Shown here piece after piece: positions 1,562 to 40,264 of a stretch of DNA of 64,000 nt; the first letter of the stretch is position 1; each line of letters starts with the position of its first letter. The DNA lies in assembly GCF_003334785.1 (NCBI RefSeq), contig NZ_QOWV01000010.1. One strand, written 5' to 3'. Source of the stretch: Escherichia coli. Its GTDB lineage: Bacteria > Pseudomonadota > Gammaproteobacteria > Enterobacterales > Enterobacteriaceae. A model generated the notes under the pieces. That model saw nothing but the letters and a program-made list of their open reading frames with translations. It had not been told where the DNA came from and ran no database searches. Both the position numbers and the translations under genes were made by a program.

Positions 1562-1682
1562 AGTTAATCACTTCACTGTGGAAAATGAGGAAATATTATT
1601 TTTTTTGCGCTTCGTAATTAATGGTTATAAGGTCGGCCAGAAACCTTTCTAATGCAAGCGATGACGTTTTTTTATGTGTCTG

Positions 1683-1704
1683 AATTTGCACTGTGTCACA
1701 ATTC
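1683..1704 (-). promoter_or_regulatory. CRP-like site (TGTGA-N6-GCAAA) upstream of malT
   Basis: Reverse strand reads aaTTGTGAcacagtGCAAAttca about 125 bp upstream of the malT ATG; malT is known to be CRP-dependent. Confidence 0.4.
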
Positions 1705-2069
1705 CAAATCTTTATTAACAACTCACCTAAAACGACGCTGATCCAGCGTGAATACTGGTTTCCCTTATGTTCATCAGATTCATTTAAGCAAGGGTTTCTT
1801 CTTCATTCCTGATGAAAGTGCCATCTAAAAAGATGATCTTAATAAATCTATTAAGAATGAGATGGAGCACACTGGATATTTTACTTATGAAACTGTTTCA
1901 CTCCTTTACTTAATTTATAGAGTTACCTTCCGCTTTTTGAAAATACGCAACGGCCATTTTTTGCACTTAGATACAGATTTTCTGCGCTGTATTGCATTGA
2001 TTTGATGCTAATCCTGTGGTTTGCACTAGCTTTAAGTGGTTGAGATCACATTTCCTTGCTCATCCCCGC

Positions 2070-2105
2070 AACTCCTCCCTGCCTAATCCCCCGCAGGATG
2101 AGGAA
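2070..2105 (+). promoter_or_regulatory. malP promoter region with MalT-box-like motifs (GGAKGA and inverted TCCTCC)
   Basis: ctcctccc and ggatgagga motifs 70-100 bp upstream of the malP ATG. Confidence 0.4.
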
Positions 2106-2148
2106 GGTCAACATCGAGCCTGGCAAACTAGCGATAACGTTGTGTTGA

Positions 2149-4566
<2,418 letters not shown>

Positions 4567-4575
4567 GGAAGCTCG

Positions 4576-6660
4576 ATGGAAAGCAAACGTCTGGATAATG
4601 CCGCGCTGGCGGCGGGGATTAGCCCCAATTACATCAATGCCCACGGTAAACCGCAGTCGATTAGCGCCGAAACCAAACGGCGTTTGCTTGACGCGATGCA
4701 TCAACGTACCGCCACGAAAGTGGCGGTAACGCCAGTCCCGAATGTCATGGTTTATACCAGCGGCAAAAAAATGCCGATGGTGGTGGAGGGCAGCGGCGAA
4801 TATAGCTGGCTGCTGACCACCGAAGAAGGAACGCAGTACAAAGGCCATGTAACGGGGGGCAAAGCGTTCAATCTACCGACGAAGCTGCCGGAAGGTTATC
4901 ACACGCTGACACTCACCCAGGACGACCAGCGCGCGCATTGCCGGGTGATTGTCGCCCCGAAACGCTGTTACGAACCGCAGGCGTTGCTGAATAAACAAAA
5001 GCTGTGGGGTGCCTGCGTTCAGCTTTATACGCTGCGATCGGAAAAAAACTGGGGTATTGGGGATTTTGGCGATCTCAAAGCGATGCTGGTGGATGTGGCA
5101 AAACGTGGCGGGTCGTTCATTGGCCTGAACCCGATTCATGCGCTCTATCCGGCAAATCCGGAGAGCGCCAGCCCATACAGCCCGTCTTCTCGCCGTTGGC
5201 TGAATGTGATTTATATCGACGTTAACGCCGTTGAAGATTTCCATCTTAGCGAAGAGGCTCAGGCCTGGTGGCAGTTGCCGACCACGCAACAGACGCTGCA
5301 ACAGGCGCGCGATGCCGACTGGGTCGATTACTCCACGGTTACCGCCCTAAAAATGACAGCATTACGAATGGCGTGGAAAGGTTTCGCGCAACGTGATGAT
5401 GAGCAGATGGCCGCGTTTCGCCAGTTTGTTGCAGAGCAGGGCGACAGCCTGTTCTGGCAGGCAGCCTTTGATGCGCTACATGCCCAGCAAGTGAAAGAGG
5501 ACGAAATGCGCTGGGGCTGGCCTGCATGGCCAGAGATGTATCAGAACGTGGATTCACCAGAAGTGCGTCAGTTCTGCGAAGAACATCGTGATGACGTCGA
5601 TTTTTATCTCTGGTTGCAGTGGCTGGCTTACAGCCAGTTTGCCGCCTGCTGGGAGATAAGCCAGGGCTATGAAATGCCGATTGGCTTGTATCGTGATCTG
5701 GCGGTTGGCGTAGCGGAAGGTGGGGCGGAAACCTGGTGTGACCGTGAACTATATTGCCTGAAAGCATCGGTTGGCGCGCCGCCGGATATCCTCGGCCCGT
5801 TGGGGCAGAACTGGGGATTACCGCCAATGGACCCGCATATCATCACCGCGCGTGCCTATGAACCGTTTATCGAGCTGTTGCGTGCCAATATGCAAAACTG
5901 CGGCGCATTACGAATTGACCATGTGATGTCGATGCTGCGTTTGTGGTGGATACCGTATGGCGAGACGGCAGATCAGGGCGCGTATGTTCACTATCCGGTG
6001 GATGATCTGCTCTCGATTCTGGCACTCGAAAGTAAACGTCATCGCTGTATGGTGATTGGTGAAGATCTCGGTACCGTACCGGTAGAGATTGTCGGTAAGC
6101 TGCGCAGCAGCGGTGTGTACTCTTACAAAGTGCTCTATTTCGAAAACGACCACGAGAAGACGTTCCGTGCACCGAAAGCGTATCCGGAGCAGTCGATGGC
6201 GGTTGCGGCGACACATGACCTGCCAACGCTGCGCGGTTACTGGGAGAGCGGGGATCTAACGCTGGGCAAAACCCTGGGGCTGTATCCGGATGAAGTGGTA
6301 CTGCGCGGTCTGTATCAGGATCGCGAACTGGCGAAGCAAGGGCTGCTGGATGCACTGCATAAATATGGTTGTCTGCCGAAACGTGCCGGGCATAAGGCAT
6401 CGTTGATGTCGATGACGCCGACGCTGAACCGTGGTTTGCAGCGCTACATTGCCGACAGTAACAGTGCTCTGTTAGGACTACAGCCGGAAGACTGGCTGGA
6501 TATGGCCGAACCGGTGAATATTCCTGGCACCAGTTACCAGTATAAAAACTGGCGACGCAAGCTTTCCGCAACGCTTGAGTCGATGTTTGCCGATGATGGC
6601 GTGAACAAGTTGCTGAAGGATTTGGACAGACGGCGCAGAGCTGCAGCGAAGAAGAAGTAG
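4576..6660 (+). CDS. malQ: 4-alpha-glucanotransferase (amylomaltase)
   Basis: 694-aa ORF 9 bp downstream of malP; operon arrangement malPQ. Confidence 0.97.
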   Translation: MESKRLDNAALAAGISPNYINAHGKPQSISAETKRRLLDAMHQRTATKVAVTPVPNVMVYTSGKKMPMVVEGSGEYSWLLTTEEGTQYKGHVTGGKAFNLPTKLPEGYHTLTLTQDDQRAHCRVIVAPKRCYEPQALLNKQKLWGACVQLYTLRSEKNWGIGDFGDLKAMLVDVAKRGGSFIGLNPIHALYPANPESASPYSPSSRRWLNVIYIDVNAVEDFHLSEEAQAWWQLPTTQQTLQQARDADWVDYSTVTALKMTALRMAWKGFAQRDDEQMAAFRQFVAEQGDSLFWQAAFDALHAQQVKEDEMRWGWPAWPEMYQNVDSPEVRQFCEEHRDDVDFYLWLQWLAYSQFAACWEISQGYEMPIGLYRDLAVGVAEGGAETWCDRELYCLKASVGAPPDILGPLGQNWGLPPMDPHIITARAYEPFIELLRANMQNCGALRIDHVMSMLRLWWIPYGETADQGAYVHYPVDDLLSILALESKRHRCMVIGEDLGTVPVEIVGKLRSSGVYSYKVLYFENDHEKTFRAPKAYPEQSMAVAATHDLPTLRGYWESGDLTLGKTLGLYPDEVVLRGLYQDRELAKQGLLDALHKYGCLPKRAGHKASLMSMTPTLNRGLQRYIADSNSALLGLQPEDWLDMAEPVNIPGTSYQYKNWRRKLSATLESMFADDGVNKLLKDLDRRRRAAAKKK

Positions 6661-10600: not shown

Positions 10601-11479
10601 TTACTGACTCGCCGCAGCCAACTCTTCTTCTGACAGCCCGGTAAAGCGCATGATGTCTGCAAGAGGAACTCCGGATTCAAGCATTATTTTGGCTATATGC
10701 AGGGCTTTGGATTGTTCCCCCTCCTGCCGCAATCTTTCCGCAATAGTCATTAAACTCTCCTTGTGTTTCGGTGAACGTTCGGCAACGCCGTCGATAAAAT
10801 CGTTAAAACGTACAGCGTCGCCAGTTTGCAGTATGTAATTAAACAGCCCTTTGATTTGTCTGTCATTAGCGTATCCACTACTTAATAAGCAGGCCATTTG
10901 CTCTACCAGCCCCATCAGGTCGCGTTGACGAATATGTTTTTGAATTAACTCCAGCAGCGCCATACGTCGGTGCTGCATGATTTCATCATCAGGCATGACG
11001 GTGACATCAATCAGCGGAAATGCGGAGGCATAAAGCTGCCTTGCCAGTTTGGGATCGGCGAAACAATCCAGCCAACACAGCGAATAGGGATAGGGGCTTT
11101 CAATACCGTGGTAAAACAACAATGGCACCACCATCGGCAACGTTTTGTATCCAGCATCAAGGTGATTTTGCATTGCGGCAATAGCGTAACGCATCATGCG
11201 AAATGCGATCAGTTTGTTTGAGGTGCTTTGATGTTCAATCAGACAATAGATGTATCCTGGTCCTTGTTCCGTTTTCACCGACCACAGCACATCGGAATAG
11301 CTTTCACGCAGATCGTCATCAATAAAGCTGCTCGACTCCAGCTTGAGGGTTTTCATATCACAAAGCGCGTGAATGGGTGCCGGTAAATGAAACGCAAGAA
11401 AATCACGAGCCGTGTCCGGTTGGCGTAAAAAGAGTTTGAACAGCGCATCGTGTGGGGTGGAACTCTGCTTTTTGCTCAT
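10601..11479 (-). CDS. rpnA: Rpn-family recombination-promoting nuclease (transposase_31 / PD-(D/E)XK-like), YhgA
   Basis: 292-aa ORF recognised as YhgA/RpnA; convergent with bioH. Confidence 0.85.
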
Positions 11480-11621
11480 GGCGTTCCTTCACCTGTTGTT
11501 TGAATGCCGCGACTCTACGCGCCACTCCACACCTGTGTATTAGCGAGTTTTCATCCCTGCGAGATGCTTTCAAAGGAACTTACGCCGTGCTGCAAGAGTT
11601 GCATTTTTATGGAAAGCCGCA

Positions 11622-11658
11622 CGCAAAAAAGCCCGGATGCAGACGCATACCGGGCTTT
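11622..11658 (-). terminator. Rho-independent terminator downstream of feoC
   Basis: Stem aagcccgg...ccgggctt followed on the reverse strand by a T6 run. Confidence 0.7.
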
Positions 11659-11681
11659 CCAAAACAGGCGATGGAGTAAGG

Positions 11682-11918
11682 TTAACGCAGCGCCCACCAC
11701 TCGCGCAGACAGGCTTTTCCTTCCGGGCAGCTTTTACAACTGCCAGAGAGGCAGCCGTCAGGTTCTTCCTGAATCCGCACGGCTTTGCCCATACTTTCCA
11801 GTTGTTGCAGCATGGCGTTAATCATTGGCTGTGGAGTGTTCAATGTCTGGCTTATCTGGGCCGCTTCCATACGGCCCCGTAACGCCAGCAAATCGCGCAC
11901 CTGAATAAGTGAAGCCAT
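11682..11918 (-). CDS. feoC: FeoC, ferrous iron transport regulator-like protein (winged helix, 4-Cys)
   Basis: Conserved start [11 protein letters not shown] (78 aa); ATG overlaps feoB stop (ATGGC/TAA). Confidence 0.9.
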
Positions 11919-14239
11919 TAATGGCAATCACCGGTGGTGCTGGCTGCGCAGCAACTGCTTACCGACTTGCGGGTTGCCAGCAGTTCGATATCCACCCGGC
12001 TACGCGCGCGGCGCAGCAGACCGATAACCACGATGTTAAACAGGATAACCGCCAGAATGCACACCAGGCTGTAAGTTGGATGCTGACTGTAGCTGGCGAC
12101 CTGATAGAACAATGTTGCCAGTGAGTAAGCGATATTCAGCCCCCACAGGATGGAGAAGCCCATCCAGCCACGGCTTGATTCACGGGCGATAGCCCCCATC
12201 ACCGAGATACATGGTACATACAGCAGGACGAAAATCAGGTAGCTGTAAGCTGCTGCTGCGCTACCGAATTTCTGATCCATCACGCCCATCGCCCCGGTAC
12301 CCATTTCGCCGTCGCCTTTGCTGGCTTCAATGGGGTTCATCAGTACGCTAAGGCTGAAGGTGTCTTTCAGGCTCTGCCAGGTTTCATCTATCGCACTGAA
12401 CAGCTCTTCACCGAGGTTAAATTCTGCCGGATTGAACTCTTCGTCCTGAATATTTTCTGCGGTGTAGAGGGTGTTGAGCGTACCCACTACCACTTCTTTC
12501 GCCATGGCACCTGTAAACAGGCCAACCGTTGCCTGCCAGTTATCTTCATGCACGCCAATTGGCTTGAAGACCGGGGTGATCACCCGGCTGACGGACGCCA
12601 GCGCCGAGTCGTTGATGTTATCGACGATTTTCCCGCTCAGCGAGAAGCTGTTGAAAGCGCTCAGGAAAATGCTGACGATGATGATCACTTTACCAGCACG
12701 CAGAACGAAGCCTTTCAGACGCTGCCAGGTCTGGATAATCAGGCTTTTAACGTGTGGTACATGATAGACCGGCAACTCCATGACAAACGGCGTCGCTTCA
12801 CCGCGCATGATGGTGTACTTGAGCATCAGGCCAGTCAGCACCGCCATCACAATACCCAGCATATACAGCGAGAAGACCGCCAGCGCACCGTTCTGCCCGA
12901 AGAAGGCAGCCGCGAATACTGCGAAGATAGCCAGACGCGCGCCGCAGGACATAAACGGTGCCATCATGATGGTCATCAGACGTTCACGCGGTGCATCAAG
13001 CGTACGTGCACCCATTACCGACGGTACGTTACAACCGAAACCGACGATCAGCGGCACAAAGGATTTCCCCGGCAAGCCCAGCGCCTGCATCAGACGGTCC
13101 ATCACAAACGCCGCACGCGCCATATACCCGGAGTCCTCAAGGAAGGAGAGGAACAGGTACATCATGCCAATCTGCGGCACCAGTGGCAGCACGGTGTTAA
13201 TGCCGCCACCCAGGCCCTGGGCGAGGAAGATAGTCAGCCAGTCCGGGAAGTGGAGCGTGTAGCCAATCCATTGAATACCATGCACAAATAGCGCCACGGA
13301 GCCGACGTCAAACAGCGGCTGTAACGCCCCGCCGATGTTGATAGCCAGCAGGAACATCAGGTACATCACAAAGAGGAAAATCGGCAGACCGAGGAAACGG
13401 TTGAGCACGATTTTATCTACCGCAGTGGTGAAACGGCTGGGTTCTGCCGTCAGGGTGTTGCTTACCACATCACAGATGGCAGCAATGCACTGGTAACGCG
13501 CATCGGCAATGTGCAGCGCCGGATCGTCCATCTCATTACGCAGACGGGCGAGGGCGGCATCCAGATGCTGCGACGCTTCACCGGCGTAGGCGCGGCTGTA
13601 GATATCGCCTTCCAGCATTTGCAGGCCCAGCCAGCGACGTTGTTTCAGCGGGATGTCGGAAGGCATCACTTTTGCCAGTGAATCTGCTTCGTTGAGCAGC
13701 GGCTGTGCGTAATGCACCAGTTCCACATTCTCGTTAGCTTTATAGCGATCAATCGCCAGCTTGAGCGCTTCAATACCGCGACCACGGGTTGAAACCAGCG
13801 GGATCACCGGACAGCCCAGACGCGCCGACAGAGCATCAATTTCAATACGAATATTTTGCTTCTCGGCAATGTCGAGCATGTTCAGTGCCACAATGCAGGG
13901 AATGCCGAGTTCCAGCAGTTGTAGCGTCAGGTACAGGTTACGCTCAAGGTTAGACGCATCCACCACGTTAATCAGCAGGTCGGCGTCGCCACTCAAAATG
14001 TAGTGACAGGCGATTTGCTCATCGAGCGAGGTCTGCGATGAGATGGTGGTCAGAGAATAGGTGCCGGGCAGGTCCACCAGCGTGACCTGATGATCGGTGG
14101 TGGAGAATTGCCCTTCTTTACGTTCGACGGTAACGCCAGCCCAGTTACCTACACGCTGACGTGAGCCAGTGAGCTGGTTAAATAACGTTGTCTTGCCAGA
14201 ATTTGGATTACCAATTAAGCCAATGGTTAATTTTTTCAT
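11918..14239 (-). CDS. feoB: Ferrous iron transporter FeoB (N-terminal GTPase plus membrane domain)
   Basis: Longest ORF 777 aa; conserved start [21 protein letters not shown] (G1 motif) gives 773 aa. Confidence 0.95.
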
Positions 14240-14255
14240 TGTTGTTATCACCGTA

Positions 14256-14483
14256 TTAACAGGAAACCGCTTCCACTTCTAATAAGGCCAGATCTTTTTT
14301 GCGTAATACCAGGCTCACACGACGGGTTTCGATATGAATGGGGTCGCCGAGTGGAGCGACGCGCACCACATTAAAAGAGGAGCCAGGTAACATGCCAAGA
14401 GAAAGCAGTTTTTGGCGATATGCCGGGCTGATTTCACGGGAAAAGCCAGTGATTTTCCACGCAGTATCTGGAGTGTATTGCAT
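14256..14483 (-). CDS. feoA: FeoA
   Basis: 75-aa ORF immediately upstream of feoB. Confidence 0.95.
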
Positions 14484-14589
14484 AGGTGCCTACTTGTTTC
14501 TCATTAACTGGATAACTACCTCATGGGGCGTTTGACAGCGACATGAGACCAGATGATTTGCCAACAAAGGAGAGATTAAATAATCAACA

Positions 14590-14690
14590 ACACAATGATA
14601 ATGAGAATGGTTTCTATCAGCAATACTTAAAATGTGTGCGAATGTTGGTTTGAATAATAATCTGACTCAATGTTGATGTGGCTCAAGGTT
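14590..14690 (-). promoter_or_regulatory. feoABC promoter region with Fur-box-like (aatgataatgagaat; tgaataataatc) and FNR-like (TTGATgtggCTCAA) motifs
   Basis: AT-rich region 110-200 bp upstream of feoA; feo is known to be Fur-repressed and FNR-activated; exact site not resolved. Confidence 0.35.
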
Positions 14691-14814
14691 ATATCGCAGC
14701 GAAAATATAATTCGAATAGTGAATTACCCGGACTGGCTAATGTTTAATTAAGGTTTCAGTTGTTAATGAAATGATAAATATTGCCGGAATATATTATGAG
14801 TTTGGCTGTGGAAT

Positions 14815-14846
14815 AAAAATGCCGGAGATATTCTCCGGCACTTTTA
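14815..14846 (-). terminator. Rho-independent terminator downstream of tex
   Basis: gccggagatattctccggc hairpin flanked by T runs on both strands. Confidence 0.65.
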
Positions 14847-14865
14847 TGTCAGGCAAGGCGTTCGT

Positions 14866-14937
14866 TGCCAGATGCGGCGTGAACGCCTTATCTGCCCTAC
14901 GATTTCGTGCAAATTCGAACCGTAGGCCAGTACGGGC
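14866..14937. repeat. Degenerate REP-like palindromic element(s)
   Basis: gccagatgcggcgtgaacgccttatctgccctac ... gtaggccagtacgggcg. Confidence 0.5.
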
Positions 14938-14939
14938 GT

Positions 14940-17261
14940 TTAACGTTTTTTGCCCATTGCCGCCGCCAGCGCATCCATCATCGCGCTATTACCGGCAGGC
15001 TGCGCTTCACGACCGCGTGGTTTGGCTGCCGGGCGGTTGTTTTGCGGGCGTTCATTACCGCCGCCGCGACGAGCGTTGGTTTCGCCAGGCTGCTCATCCA
15101 GGCGCATAGTCAGGGCGATACGTTTACGCTGAAGATCCACTTCCAGCACTTTCACCTTCACAATGTCGCCCGCTTTCACCACGGTATGCGGATCTTCCAC
15201 AAACTTGTTCGACAATGAAGAGATGTGAACCAGGCCGTCCTGATGCACGCCAATATCGACAAACGCGCCAAAGTTGGTGACGTTGGTCACTGCGCCTTCG
15301 AGGATCATACCCGGTTGCAGGTCGTTCATTGTCTCGACGCCATCGGCAAACTGAGCGGTTTTAAATTCCGGACGCGGATCGCGACCCGGTTTTTCCAGCT
15401 CTTTGATGATGTCGGTTACCGTCGGCACACCGAATTTCTCATCAGTAAAGTCAGACGCTTTCAGGTTACGCAGTTCGCTGCTGTTACCCATCAGATCTTT
15501 CAGTGCCTGCTGTGTTGCTGCCAGAATGCGTTCCACCACCGGATAGGCTTCCGGGTGAACGGTAGACGCGTCCAGCGGGTTATCACCGTGGTTAATGCGC
15601 AAGAAGCCCGCGCACTGCTCGAAGGCTTTCGGCCCCAGACGGCTCACTTTTAACAGTTGCTGACGGTTCTGGAACTGACCGTTCTCATCGCGCCAGGCAA
15701 CGATGTTTTGCGCCATCATGCGCGTCAGGCCCGCCACGCGGGTTAACAGCGGAACAGAAGCAGTGTTGAGATCGACGCCAACGGCGTTTACGCAGTCTTC
15801 TACTACTGCGTCCAGTTTGCGGGCCAGTTGCGTCTGGCTGACGTCATGCTGATACTGACCTACGCCGATAGATTTCGGATCGATTTTCACCAGCTCCGCC
15901 AGCGGATCCTGCAAACGGCGGGCGATAGACACCGCGCCACGCAGCGAAACGTCGAGATCCGGGAACTCCTGTGCAGCCAGCTCGGAAGCCGAGTAAACCG
16001 ACGCGCCTGCTTCGCTGACGATTACTTTCTGCGCGGTCACTTTCGGGAACTGCTTCTGCACATCGAGATAGAAACGCTCAGTTTCGCGGGAAGCTGTACC
16101 GTTACCGATCGCTACCAGTTCAACGTTATGTTTTTCACACAGCGCAGCAACGGTCATCGCTGCTTTTGCGGCCTGTCCGGTGTGCGGGTAAATGGTGTCG
16201 GTCGCCACCAGTTTGCCAGTGGCATCGACCACCGCCACTTTTACCCCAGTACGCAGACCCGGATCGAGGCCCATCGTTGCACGCAGTCCGGCAGGGGCCG
16301 CCATCAGCAGATCGTGCAGGTTACGGGCAAAGACGTTGATTGCTTCATCTTCCGCACGTTCGCGCACGGTGCCCATCAGTTCGGTTTCCAGATGCATCAG
16401 CACCTTGATGCGCCACGTCCAGCTCACCACGCCTTTGCGCCAGCTATCCGCCGGGGCATTGTTCAGGCGCAGGCCAAGGTGATCCATGATGATTTGCTCG
16501 CAATAGCTCTCTTTGGGCGGCTCATCGAACTGTGGATCGGCATTCAGCGAAAGCTGAAGTACGCCTTCGTTACGCCCACGGAACATCGCCAGCGCGCGGT
16601 GAGAAGGCACCGTGGACAACGGTTCGTGATGATCGAAATAGTCGCGGAATTTCGCCCCTTCCTCTTCTTTACCGCTCACCACCGTAGAAACCAAATGCGC
16701 GTTCTTCCACAGATAATCACGCACTTTCGCCAGCAGCGCGGCATCTTCGGCAAACCGTTCCATCAGGATATAGCGCGCGCCATCCAGCGCGGCTTTGGTA
16801 TCTGCCACGCCTTTATCGGCATCAACATATTGTGCAGCGGCGACTTCTGGCGTGTGTGACGGATCGCTCCACAGCAGGTCAGCCAACGGCTCAAGCCCTG
16901 CTTCAATGGCGATTTGCCCGCGGGTGCGGCGTTTAGGTTTGTAGGGCAGGTAGAGGTCTTCGAGTTCGGTTTTGCTTAGGGTGGCGTTGATGGCCTTCGC
17001 CAGATCATCGGTGAGTTTGCCTTGCTCGGAAATGGACTTGAGGATCGCCTGACGTCTCTCTTCCAGCTCGCGCAGATAGCTCAGACGCGTTTCCAGATTA
17101 CGCAGCTGCGTGTCATCCAGACCGCCGGTGATTTCCTTACGATAACGTGCGATAAACGGCACGGTATTCCCTTCGTCAAGCAGGCGAACGGCAGCGTCAA
17201 CCTGTTCCGGGCGCGCCTGAATTTCACCCGCAATAATGCGGCAGAACGAATCATTCATCAT
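14940..17261 (-). CDS. tex: Tex, transcription accessory protein (S1 domain, YqgF/HhH domains)
   Basis: 773-aa ORF; sequence recognised as YhgF/Tex. Confidence 0.95.
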
Positions 17262-18061: not shown

Positions 18062-20130
<2,069 letters not shown>

Positions 20131-32674: not shown

Positions 32675-33213
32675 TGAACCCGCCAATTAATTTTTTGCCC
32701 TGGCGACAGCAACGCCGGACCGCTTTTCTGCGTTTCTGGTTGCTGATGTTCGTTGCGCCTCTGCTGCTGGCCGTCGGGATAACGCTAATACTGCGTCTGA
32801 CAGGCAGCGCCGAAGCGCGCATAGACGCAGTTTTGCTTCAGGCGGAACAACAACTCGCCCGCAGCTTACAGATAACGAAGCCACGTTTGCTGGAGCAACA
32901 GCAGTTACGCGAACAGCGTTCGCAACGGCAGCGCCAGCGACAATTTACCCGCGACTGGCAATCTGCGCTGGAAGCACTGGCGGCGCTTTTACCCGAGCAC
33001 GCCTGGCTGACAACGATAAGCTGGCAGCAGGGAACGCTGGAGATCAAGGGGCTGACAACAAGCATTACCGCGTTAAACGCACTAGAAACGTCACTCCGCC
33101 AGGATGCATCTTTTCATCTCAATCAGCGGGGAGCCACGCAGCAGGATGCGCAGGGACGCTGGCAATTTGAGTATCAGTTAACAAGGAAGGTTAGCGATGA
33201 ACATGTTCTTTGA
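32674..33213 (+). CDS. hofN: PilN-like protein HofN
   Basis: 179-aa ORF, start overlaps hofM stop. Confidence 0.88.
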   Translation: MNPPINFLPWRQQRRTAFLRFWLLMFVAPLLLAVGITLILRLTGSAEARIDAVLLQAEQQLARSLQITKPRLLEQQQLREQRSQRQRQRQFTRDWQSALEALAALLPEHAWLTTISWQQGTLEIKGLTTSITALNALETSLRQDASFHLNQRGATQQDAQGRWQFEYQLTRKVSDEHVL

Positions 33214-33637
33214 CTGGTGGTTCGCCACATCACCCCGCCTCCGCCAGCTTTGCTGGGCATTCTGGTTGCTGATGTTAGTTACGCTCATTTTTCTGTCATC
33301 GACACACCATGAAGAGCGCGACGCATTAATTCGACTACGGGCAAGTCATCACCAGCAGTGGGCCGCACTGTATCGCCTGGTAGACACCACTCCCTTCAGC
33401 GAGGAAAAAACGCTGCCCTTTTCGCCACTGGATTTTCAGTTATCCGGCGCGCAACTGGTTTCCTGGCATCCATCCGCGCAGGGAGGCGAGTTGGCGTTGA
33501 AAACGCTGTGGGAAGCAGTGCCGTCGGCATTTACACGGCTGGCAGAGCGCAACGTCAGCGTGAGCCGTTTTTCGTTAAGCGTGGAAGGTGATGATCTTTT
33601 GTTCACGCTACAACTGGAGACGCCGCATGAGGGTTAA
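33197..33637 (+). CDS. hofO: PilO-like protein HofO
   Basis: 146-aa ORF overlapping hofN end by 17 nt. Confidence 0.85.
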   Translation: MNMFFDWWFATSPRLRQLCWAFWLLMLVTLIFLSSTHHEERDALIRLRASHHQQWAALYRLVDTTPFSEEKTLPFSPLDFQLSGAQLVSWHPSAQGGELALKTLWEAVPSAFTRLAERNVSVSRFSLSVEGDDLLFTLQLETPHEG

Positions 33638-34031
33638 ACGCTGGTTGTTGGCAGGTATTGCATTGTGCCTTTTAACCGGTATGCGTGACCCTTTTAAACC
33701 GCCGGAAGATCTATGCCGGATTAGCGAACTTAGCCAGTGGCGCTATCAGGGGATGGTAGGGCGAGGCGAGCGCATCATCGGTGTAATAAAAGACGGGCAA
33801 AAGAAATGGCGACGGGTGCAGCAAAACGATGTGCTGGAAAACGGCTGGACAATTTTACAGCTGACGCCAGACGTACTAACGCTGGGTACCGGGACAAACT
33901 GCGAACCGCCACAATGGTTGTGGCAACGGCAAGGAGATACAAATGAAGCAATGGATAGCCGCACTACTGTTGATGCTGATACCCGGCGTACAGGCGGCAA
34001 AGCCGCAAAAAGTGACGCTGATGGTGGATGA
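33627..34031 (+). CDS. hofP: PilP-like protein HofP
   Basis: Start MRVKRWLLAGIALCLL (signal-peptide-like), 134 aa; overlaps hofO end and first 89 nt of hofQ. Confidence 0.8.
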   Translation: MRVKRWLLAGIALCLLTGMRDPFKPPEDLCRISELSQWRYQGMVGRGERIIGVIKDGQKKWRRVQQNDVLENGWTILQLTPDVLTLGTGTNCEPPQWLWQRQGDTNEAMDSRTTVDADTRRTGGKAAKSDADGG

Positions 34032-39586: not shown

Positions 39587-40264
39587 ATGAAACAGTATTT
39601 GATTGCCCCCTCAATTCTGTCGGCTGATTTTGCCCGCCTGGGTGAAGATACCGCAAAAGCCCTGGCAGCTGGCGCTGATGTCGTGCATTTTGACGTCATG
39701 GATAACCACTATGTTCCCAATCTGACGATTGGGCCAATGGTGCTGAAATCCTTGCGTAACTATGGCATTACCGCCCCTATCGACGTACACCTGATGGTGA
39801 AACCCGTCGATCGCATTGTGCCTGATTTCGCTGCCGCTGGTGCCAGCATCATTACCTTTCATCCAGAAGCCTCCGAGCATGTTGACCGCACGCTGCAACT
39901 GATTAAAGAAAATGGCTGTAAAGCGGGTCTGGTATTTAACCCGGCGACACCTCTGAGCTATCTGGATTACGTGATGGATAAGCTGGATGTGATCCTGCTG
40001 ATGTCCGTCAACCCTGGTTTCGGCGGTCAGTCTTTCATTCCTCAAACACTGGATAAACTGCGCGAAGTACGTCGCCGTATCGACGAGTCTGGCTTTGACA
40101 TTCGACTAGAAGTGGACGGTGGCGTGAAGGTGAACAACATTGGCGAAATCGCTGCGGCGGGCGCGGATATGTTCGTCGCCGGTTCGGCAATCTTCGACCA
40201 GCCAGACTACAAAAAAGTCATTGATGAAATGCGCAGTGAACTGGCAAAGGTAAGTCATGAATAA
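39587..40264 (+). CDS. rpe: Ribulose-phosphate 3-epimerase
   Basis: 225-aa ORF recognised as Rpe. Confidence 0.97.

Follow-up and report, generated by a model that had tools for sequence, protein, structure and literature searches.

Among co-directional gene pairs in Escherichia coli, the commonest spacing is -4, followed by -1; distances from -8 to +6 account for 707 of 2987 such pairs, and another 203 pairs form a second, small peak at +9 to +12, where a Shine-Dalgarno sequence just fits (PMC10666635). Coupling drops by 40-80% at +14 bases and is gone by about +38, and overlaps are enriched among genes for subunits of protein complexes (PMC10666635). Two non-exclusive models of translational coupling are considered, i.e. 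unfolding of the RNA and reinitiation by the same ribosome (PMC12548453). Of five overlapping E. coli pairs assayed with reporters, four were coupled, and the contribution of the Shine-Dalgarno sequence varied from essential to none; bioB-bioF, which overlaps and has a very weak Shine-Dalgarno sequence, nevertheless initiated de novo in these tests (PMC6728339). Coupled genes also tend toward resistance to kasugamycin (PMC5230787).

The described pairs closest to feoB-feoC are hyfH-hyfI, astD-astB, ydbH-ynbE and menD-menH (PMC6728339) as well as hsdM-hsdS, which overlaps by one base (PMC3510504). As in feoB-feoC, stop and start codons of these pairs overlap within one operon, the start codon lies in or near local RNA structure, and the two products interact physically. 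By contrast, these pairs were assayed with premature stop codons, whereas coupling of feoB-feoC is inferred from sequence and ribosome profiling. Moreover, most of these pairs have a Shine-Dalgarno sequence in the upstream gene at normal spacing, whereas feoC of strain K-12 has only a misplaced GGUGAU.

Within the feo operons, feoA and feoB of Vibrio cholerae likewise have a short overlap, but this is a different gene pair (PMC8749426); this overlap shows that feo genes are closely packed and that the junctions between them shift in evolution. In E. coli, 16 bases separate feoA from feoB. In a heterologous assay, the E. coli Feo system needs FeoC and its cysteines to be fully functional, and in liquid medium the function of the E. 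coli system without FeoC is lowered, not abolished (PMC8749426).

We analysed a stretch of E. coli DNA of 64,000 nucleotides (the window, to which the coordinates refer), in which the feo operon has the following features:

14256 to 14483, minus strand: feoA, the first gene of the operon, 75 aa (NCBIfam NF007106, 161 bits versus a cut-off of 102; RefSeq)
11918 to 14239, minus strand: feoB, 773 aa, with the C terminus ...GDCH followed by TAA (RefSeq annotation)
11682 to 11918, minus strand: feoC (yhgG), 78 aa, with Cys56, Cys61, Cys64 and Cys70
11916 to 11920, minus strand: TAATG junction of feoB and feoC, bases T11920, A11919, A11918, T11917 and G11916 (sequence and RefSeq)
11625 to 11656, minus strand: intrinsic terminator after feoC, stem AGCCCGGTATGC / GCATCCGGGCT and then TTTTTT, which ends the feoABC transcription unit

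At the junction, the minus strand reads ...GGT GAT TGC CAT TAA TGG CTT CAC TTA.... The feoB stop codon TAA occupies 11920-11918 and the feoC start codon ATG 11918-11916, so that A11918 is common to both genes and the distance is -1, inside the range of -8 to about +6 that is expected of termination-reinitiation pairs. The original prediction had placed an overlap of the feoB stop and the feoC start at 11916-11920; this interval is exactly the pentamer TAATG, and it is the same in RefSeq. Likewise, in the RefSeq annotation of MG1655 (locus L001), feoB at 1562-3883 and feoC at 3883-4119 have one common base, and these genes correspond to 11918-14239 and 11682-11918 of the window. A segment of 701 bases spanning the junction matches E. 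coli K-12 MG1655 with 100% identity, and 5425 of the 5426 complete E. coli genomes carry this segment a single time. We conclude that the overlap is a real feature, correctly located and identified.

The assignment of the two genes to feoB and to feoC, the latter for a small winged-helix protein, held as well, with equivalog matches for both. FeoB matched NCBIfam NF007105 (TIGR00437) with 1642 bits versus a cut-off of 683 over residues 1-773, and FeoC matched the NCBIfam equivalog NF011960 / Pfam PF09012 with 176 bits versus a cut-off of 111 over residues 1-78 of 78. FeoC is YhgG, and PDB entry 1XN7 ('Hypothetical protein yhgG') is a full-length match (E=6e-49). FeoC has the motif CX4CX2CX5C, and C56, C61, C64 and C70 are invariant in an alignment of 15 FeoC proteins. 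FeoC is also chain B in the multi-chain PDB entries 4AWX and 7WQU, the former of which we take to be FeoC in complex with the N-terminal domain of FeoB. The presence of FeoC in multi-chain entries fits the enrichment of overlaps among protein-complex subunits (PMC10666635).

feoB and feoC are co-directional neighbours with a terminator only past feoC, and feoA, feoB and feoC are all covered by RNA-seq and ribosome-profiling reads. A terminator-like site was predicted on the minus strand at 11644-11631, while no promoter-like sites were predicted on the minus strand within 11400-14900, including inside feoB. The gene downstream of feoC encodes RpnA. An Rfam E-value scan of 11300-15000 gave only sub-threshold matches at chance level and none at the junction.

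We considered two other readings of the junction. The in-frame TTG at 11927, which would give an ORF of 81 aa and which GGTGA directly abuts, was rejected as the feoC start codon; the FeoC family model and all homologues begin with MAS.... A FeoB-FeoC fusion made by frameshifting was dropped; there is a TGA in the feoC frame 12 bases before the ATG and no slippery sequence.

We then compared the junction with that of other bacteria. An alignment of 15 FeoC proteins was used to retrieve 80 loci from bacterial assemblies with one genome per species; all 80 loci are from Enterobacteriaceae, with FeoC identities of 69-100%. In 78 other species of Enterobacteriaceae, the feoB stop codon (TAA, TAG or TGA) is followed by 8-13 bases and then ATG, and the Shine-Dalgarno sequence starts in or right after the stop codon, e.g. 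CAC TAA GGAG nnnnn ATG or TAGGAG. In Escherichia albertii and E. whittamii, the junction is TAA GGAyACAGCA ATG. Among the retrieved loci, TAATG was found only in K-12 and in L004, which is labelled Escherichia sp. MOD1-EC7003. Eleven bases present in E. albertii are missing in K-12, and the two bases AA leave the exact limits of this deletion ambiguous; relative to the ancestral TAA-GGAyAC(A/G)(G/A)CA-ATG, as compared with loci L002, L003, L082 and L095, the deletion sits at TAATG. These comparisons show that the overlap is derived, having arisen by an 11-base deletion that took away the feoC ribosome-binding site.

The ancestral junctions, i.e. those of other Enterobacteriaceae and of the E. 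coli strains described below, share the FeoB C terminus with K-12, typically ...GDCH and with -CH in every locus read, and they share the FeoC N terminus MAS.... They differ from K-12 in having their own Shine-Dalgarno sequence, with an aligned spacing of 4-5 bases and a median score of -7.9 kcal/mol versus -0.6 kcal/mol for K-12. Partial coupling remains feasible at such a short distance (PMC10666635), and the class of pairs at +9 to +12, into which the ancestral feoB-feoC junction falls, is considered mostly independently initiated (PMC10666635).

Both forms of the junction are present within E. coli. With an 80-base probe of the K-12 junction, 4595 of the 5426 complete E. coli genomes matched at >=95% identity, 90 genomes matched at 60-80% over a span of 91 bases, and 741 genomes gave no match. 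The spacer allele of strain N64 is CAC TAA GGACACGACA ATG, with feoB and feoC 10 bases apart in RefSeq; with a 91-base probe of this allele, 831 genomes matched at >=90%, and 4572 matched at 60-80% over a span of 80 bases. Thus, about 15% of the complete E. coli genomes (831/5426) retain the spacer and about 85% (about 4,570-4,600) have the 11-base deletion. The overlap is a deletion allele limited to most E. coli and not conserved across feo operons, an aspect that the original prediction had overlooked.

Among 60 of the genomes closest to the N64 spacer allele were those of LF82, NRG 857C, DSM 30083 (the type strain), NU14 and UTI89, and also S88, IHE3034, APEC O1, UM146, PMV-1 and SE15. These named strains (LF82, UTI89, SE15 etc.) belong to phylogroup B2, an assignment that covers only the recognised names among the 831 genomes. 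The ancestral spacer form survives in B2-type strains.

In four of four deletion alleles read, the deletion occurs together with four linked synonymous changes (GGC to GGT, CAC to CAT, TCG to TCA and CTC to CTT). K-12 and N64 diverge by 7-9% across feoC and by 0-5% over most of the region, and the four linked changes in about 30 bases beside the deletion are not an excess clearly above the local divergence of 7-9%. In ECAMP047, the FeoB and FeoC proteins are identical to those of a B2 strain, yet the deletion core is present; this genome is either an intermediate or a recombinant. The segment that separates the two alleles is GGACACGACAA.

We next consider the initiation signals that are left to feoC in K-12. 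The duplex of the K-12 junction with the 16S rRNA 3' end ACCUCCUUA has a predicted energy of -3.0 kcal/mol, the weakest among 82 loci, the others having -3.6 to -12.1 kcal/mol. The 3' end of feoB has no usable Shine-Dalgarno sequence, a motif that is usual in termination-reinitiation pairs but not obligatory, the best duplex with ACCUCCUUA being this one of -3.0 kcal/mol at an aligned spacing of 10 bases. Two features of the junction are relevant here:

11927 to 11932, minus strand: GGTGAT, the Gly-Asp codons inside feoB, complementary to AUCACC of the 16S rRNA 3' tail
11908 to 11932, minus strand: predicted mRNA hairpin, GGUGA-UU-GCCA-[UUAA]-UGGC-U-UCACU

The 3' end of GGUGAU lies 8 bases before the ATG, and the aligned spacing is 10 bases as computed by script or 12 bases as counted by hand, the optimum being near 5. 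With the extended 16S tail GAUCACCUCCUUA, GGUGAU forms a predicted duplex of -9.9 kcal/mol. By its position and pairing, GGUGAU appears to be a poor and misplaced Shine-Dalgarno-like element. We also calculated a crude initiation score as the sum of hybridisation, a spacing penalty, a start-codon term and mRNA folding, which is a simplified Salis model and not the published calculator. K-12 scored +22.8 kcal/mol, the worst value among the 82 loci, while the B2 allele scored +10.5 kcal/mol and the median was +7.8 kcal/mol for the 80 loci excluding K-12 and L004.

The predicted hairpin has a folding energy of -10.0 kcal/mol and z = -3.44 versus dinucleotide shuffles, 2 of 200 of which fold as well. 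The stop codon lies in the loop along with the A of the AUG; the other two bases of this start codon, U and G, and the Shine-Dalgarno-like GGUGA are in the stems. The same stems are predicted in the Escherichia spacer alleles, where they enclose a loop of 15 bases with the Shine-Dalgarno sequence exposed (z = -2.1), and the hairpin is absent from the folds of Salmonella and Klebsiella. The inner stem is invariant in 75 distinct junctions because the Cys-His and Met-Ala codons dictate its sequence, and the outer stem is complete in 39 of the 75. By direct counts of pairs, these 75 junctions gave no covariation, and the one freely varying pair did no better than shuffles (p = 0.44). Thus, a conserved RNA structure at the junction is not supported and the thermodynamic prediction stands for the Escherichia alleles only. 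The wider fold of 131 bases around the junction is not unusual (z = -1.0).

For expression, we recomputed a summary of published ribosome-profiling data for MG1655 (PMC10746267, Table S3; nine libraries, three pH conditions). The mean footprint density (RPKM) of feoB was 78 at pH 7.6, 294 at pH 5.8 and 113 at pH 4.4, and that of feoC was 13.7, 45.4 and 24.9, respectively, giving feoC/feoB ratios of 0.18, 0.155 and 0.22. The feoA/feoB ratio was far less stable (0.22-0.57). Across the nine libraries, footprints on feoC and feoB correlated with a Spearman coefficient of 0.97, while footprints on feoC correlated with feoC RNA at 0.5, which is not significant. The RNA coverage of feoC was 2.4-3.7 times that of feoB, and the translation efficiency was 0.15-0.41 for feoC versus 1.9-8.9 for feoB, i.e. 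12- to 22-fold lower for feoC. Coupling together with inefficient reinitiation would give this pattern, which comes from a single study.

At pH 5.8, feoA, feoB and feoC all increase in parallel, and something other than coupling may drive them jointly. Footprints of ribosomes that terminate on feoB at the shared junction may count toward feoC. In a kasugamycin translatome (PMC5230787), the ratios for feoC and feoB were about 0.87 and 1.12; neither is significant, and the data are uninformative for this pair. In the full-text library searched, neither coupling of feoB and feoC nor the polymorphism of their junction is tested or discussed in any paper found.

The original prediction had read the overlap as consistent with translational coupling of feoC to feoB. 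This is a fair reading of the sequence and a plausible one, and, given that feoC has lost its Shine-Dalgarno sequence, that its start codon is buried in the predicted hairpin, and in view of the ribosome-profiling data and of how often overlapping pairs are coupled, we consider it probable that translation of K-12 feoC depends substantially on translation of feoB. As the genome comparison shows, the 11-base deletion took out the spacer that in relatives bears the feoC Shine-Dalgarno sequence and joined stop to start as UAAUG, so that feoC would be left with almost no initiation signal of its own, GGUGAU lying too far upstream and being paired, like the AUG, in the predicted hairpin. Given the weak signal and the paired AUG, FeoC would most likely be made by translational coupling. 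A ribosome that finishes FeoB would melt the hairpin and terminate at UAA with the AUG directly beneath it, and a fraction of the terminating ribosomes would restart on feoC, with a footprint density that profiling suggests is about one fifth of that of feoB. FeoC would then be made in step with FeoB, at a constant and sub-stoichiometric ratio.

Alternatively, feoC might initiate independently and de novo, at GGUGAU or without a Shine-Dalgarno sequence, and the overlap might be mere compact packing. The -9.9 kcal/mol duplex of GGUGAU with the extended 16S tail could support some initiation of this kind, bioB-bioF is a precedent for de novo initiation in an overlapping pair with a very weak Shine-Dalgarno sequence (PMC6728339), and the 2.4- to 3.7-fold higher RNA coverage of feoC suggests that feoC RNA without full-length feoB may exist. 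However, GGUGAU is far from the AUG, at an aligned spacing of 10-12 bases, the predicted -10 kcal/mol hairpin pairs both the AUG and GGUGA, the translation efficiency of feoC is 12- to 22-fold under that of feoB, and feoC footprints track feoB footprints and not feoC RNA. On balance, we regard independent initiation as unlikely.

Coupling could also occur solely by unfolding of the RNA, in which case feoB ribosomes would open the hairpin and a fresh 30S subunit would initiate on feoC without reinitiation by the terminating ribosome. A hairpin is indeed predicted over the start site and unfolding is one of the two accepted models; however, at a distance of -1 the terminating ribosome covers the AUG, and a new 30S subunit must wait while the hairpin can refold (PMC12548453). 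Moreover, feoC has no good Shine-Dalgarno sequence for recruiting a new 30S subunit. Unfolding as the only route of coupling is quite improbable.

To place the junction in a broader context, relatives of FeoC down to about 35% identity were collected in a search of cluster representatives, and the encoding contigs of eight of them were read. The gap between feoB and feoC was +9 to +11 in five of these eight distant lineages; two had a TGATG overlap (-1) with the Shine-Dalgarno sequence inside feoB, and one had an ATGA overlap (-4) without a Shine-Dalgarno sequence. Since spacers of +9 to +11 and overlaps of -1 or -4 both occur across lineages, the junction has switched configuration several times.

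The deletion could be an accident, without effect on fitness or mildly harmful, that became common through drift or hitch-hiking; the overlap would then not have been selected for a regulatory advantage, and the lower FeoC output would still be sufficient. Both alleles persist (831 spacer versus about 4,570-4,600 overlap genomes), the junction flips repeatedly between about +10 and -1 or -4 across FeoC lineages, and loss of FeoC lowers but does not abolish function in liquid medium (PMC8749426). By contrast, two of the linked changes, GGC to GGU and UCG to UCA, preserve the pairing of the outer stem and could hint at compensation, although these changes are not statistically distinguishable from the local background divergence. 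We consider this explanation about evenly poised between right and wrong. It concerns selection and not mechanism, and it is compatible with mechanical coupling.

More speculatively, the deletion may have switched feoC from largely independent initiation driven by a Shine-Dalgarno sequence to obligatory coupling, a proposal that we find doubtful; it would imply, with similarly low confidence, that feoC initiates independently in B2 E. coli, E. albertii, Salmonella and Klebsiella. If such a switch did occur, E. coli strains outside B2 would make less FeoC at a fixed ratio to FeoB, and B2 strains could make more of it, independently of FeoB. B2 strains include many extra-intestinal pathogens. 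In Salmonella, FeoC reportedly shields FeoB from proteolysis by FtsH; on this basis, the two alleles could differ in FeoB stability and in ferrous-iron uptake under changing oxygen.

As a finding, the allele pair is a minor detail and apparently unreported. It places, within one species and between nearly identical flanking coding sequences, a 10-base spacer with a Shine-Dalgarno sequence next to a 1-base overlap without one, and it thus provides a clean test case for the effect of a short deletion on translational coupling and subunit ratios. It also calls for caution, in that FeoC levels measured in Salmonella, Klebsiella or B2 E. coli may be a poor guide to K-12.

The overlap itself is of little importance; the TAATG arrangement is common and textbook, and in this case it was already annotated in the best-studied bacterial genome. 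In the first 50 kb of the window, RefSeq has three overlaps of -1 (feoB/feoC, hofM/hofN and yhfX/yhfW), two overlaps of -4 (ompR/envZ and yhfW/php), several overlaps of -8 or longer, and five pairs at +9 to +11.

E. coli strain ECAMP047 (locus L094, 100-200) shares its FeoB and FeoC protein accessions with the B2 strain N64; despite these N64-type proteins, the feoB-feoC junction is of the K-12 type, i.e. it carries the 11-base deletion together with the four linked synonymous changes. Such a combination points to recombination over a short tract or to a haplotype intermediate between the two types. The band of intermediate identity that includes ECAMP047 comprises ~134 genomes. In E. coli EV36 mutant 5a (H82, NZ_CP093369.1), the junction is of the spacer type (B2-like) and 99.6% identical to that of N64, a CSF isolate. 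EV36 is a K-12/K1 hybrid laboratory strain, and its feo region would then derive from the K1 donor.

We also considered RNA levels across the two genes in MG1655, comparing the following regions of the window:
11625-11918, minus strand, feoC and terminator
11918-14239, minus strand, feoB
In published RNA-seq data (PMC10746267, Table S3), coverage was 93-152 RPKM for feoC vs 25-64 RPKM for feoB, i.e. 2.4-3.7-fold higher for feoC within the same operon. The excess of feoC RNA may represent a stable 3' fragment that is shielded by the terminator or, alternatively, a separate transcript. A search for a sigma-70-like site inside feoB on the minus strand found none, and Rfam gave no match.

On the side of feoC, the operon is adjoined by the gene for a recombination-promoting nuclease, which is intact in the window:
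10601-11479, rpnA
The rpnA gene of N64 (L083, the N64 locus, 2661-3254) is annotated as a truncated pseudogene without the N terminus, and ~250 bases are missing in the alignment. On the side of feoA, Rfam hits in the region between yhgF and feoA (14787-14945) stayed below threshold; the families concerned are REP-derived or sRNA families, among them naRNA4 (32 bits vs a gathering score of 59.5). The region also contains:
14820-14840, plus strand, perfect 9-bp palindrome
The region probably represents a REP-type repeat or else the terminator region of yhgF, upstream of the feo promoter.

Overlaps of feoB and feoC were also present in loci of distant FeoC lineages:
L087, 905-920, ATGA
L091, 1195-1205, TGATG
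L092, 270-285, TGATG
The final feoB codons of L092 contain a strong AGGAGG, and the L087 overlap has no Shine-Dalgarno sequence whatsoever. The overlaps in these distant lineages are of independent origin. FeoC-like winged-helix modules were, moreover, unexpectedly found repeated within proteins of ~2,500 residues: in the search of representative proteins, P0166 (2574 aa) contained four FeoC-like stretches and P0187 (2510 aa) eight, at 29-32% identity.

Finally, short overlaps of co-directional gene pairs are many elsewhere in the window (negative values, shared bases; positive values, gaps):
18778-18781, ompR/envZ, -4
32674, hofM/hofN, -1
33197-34031, hofN/O/P/Q, -17, -11 and -89
40257-41015, rpe/gph/trpS, -8 and -8
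44833, yhfX/yhfW, -1
46056-46059, yhfW/php, -4
Gaps of +9 to +11 separate five pairs, in malP/malQ, hslR/yrfG and php/yhfU/yhfT/yhfS.
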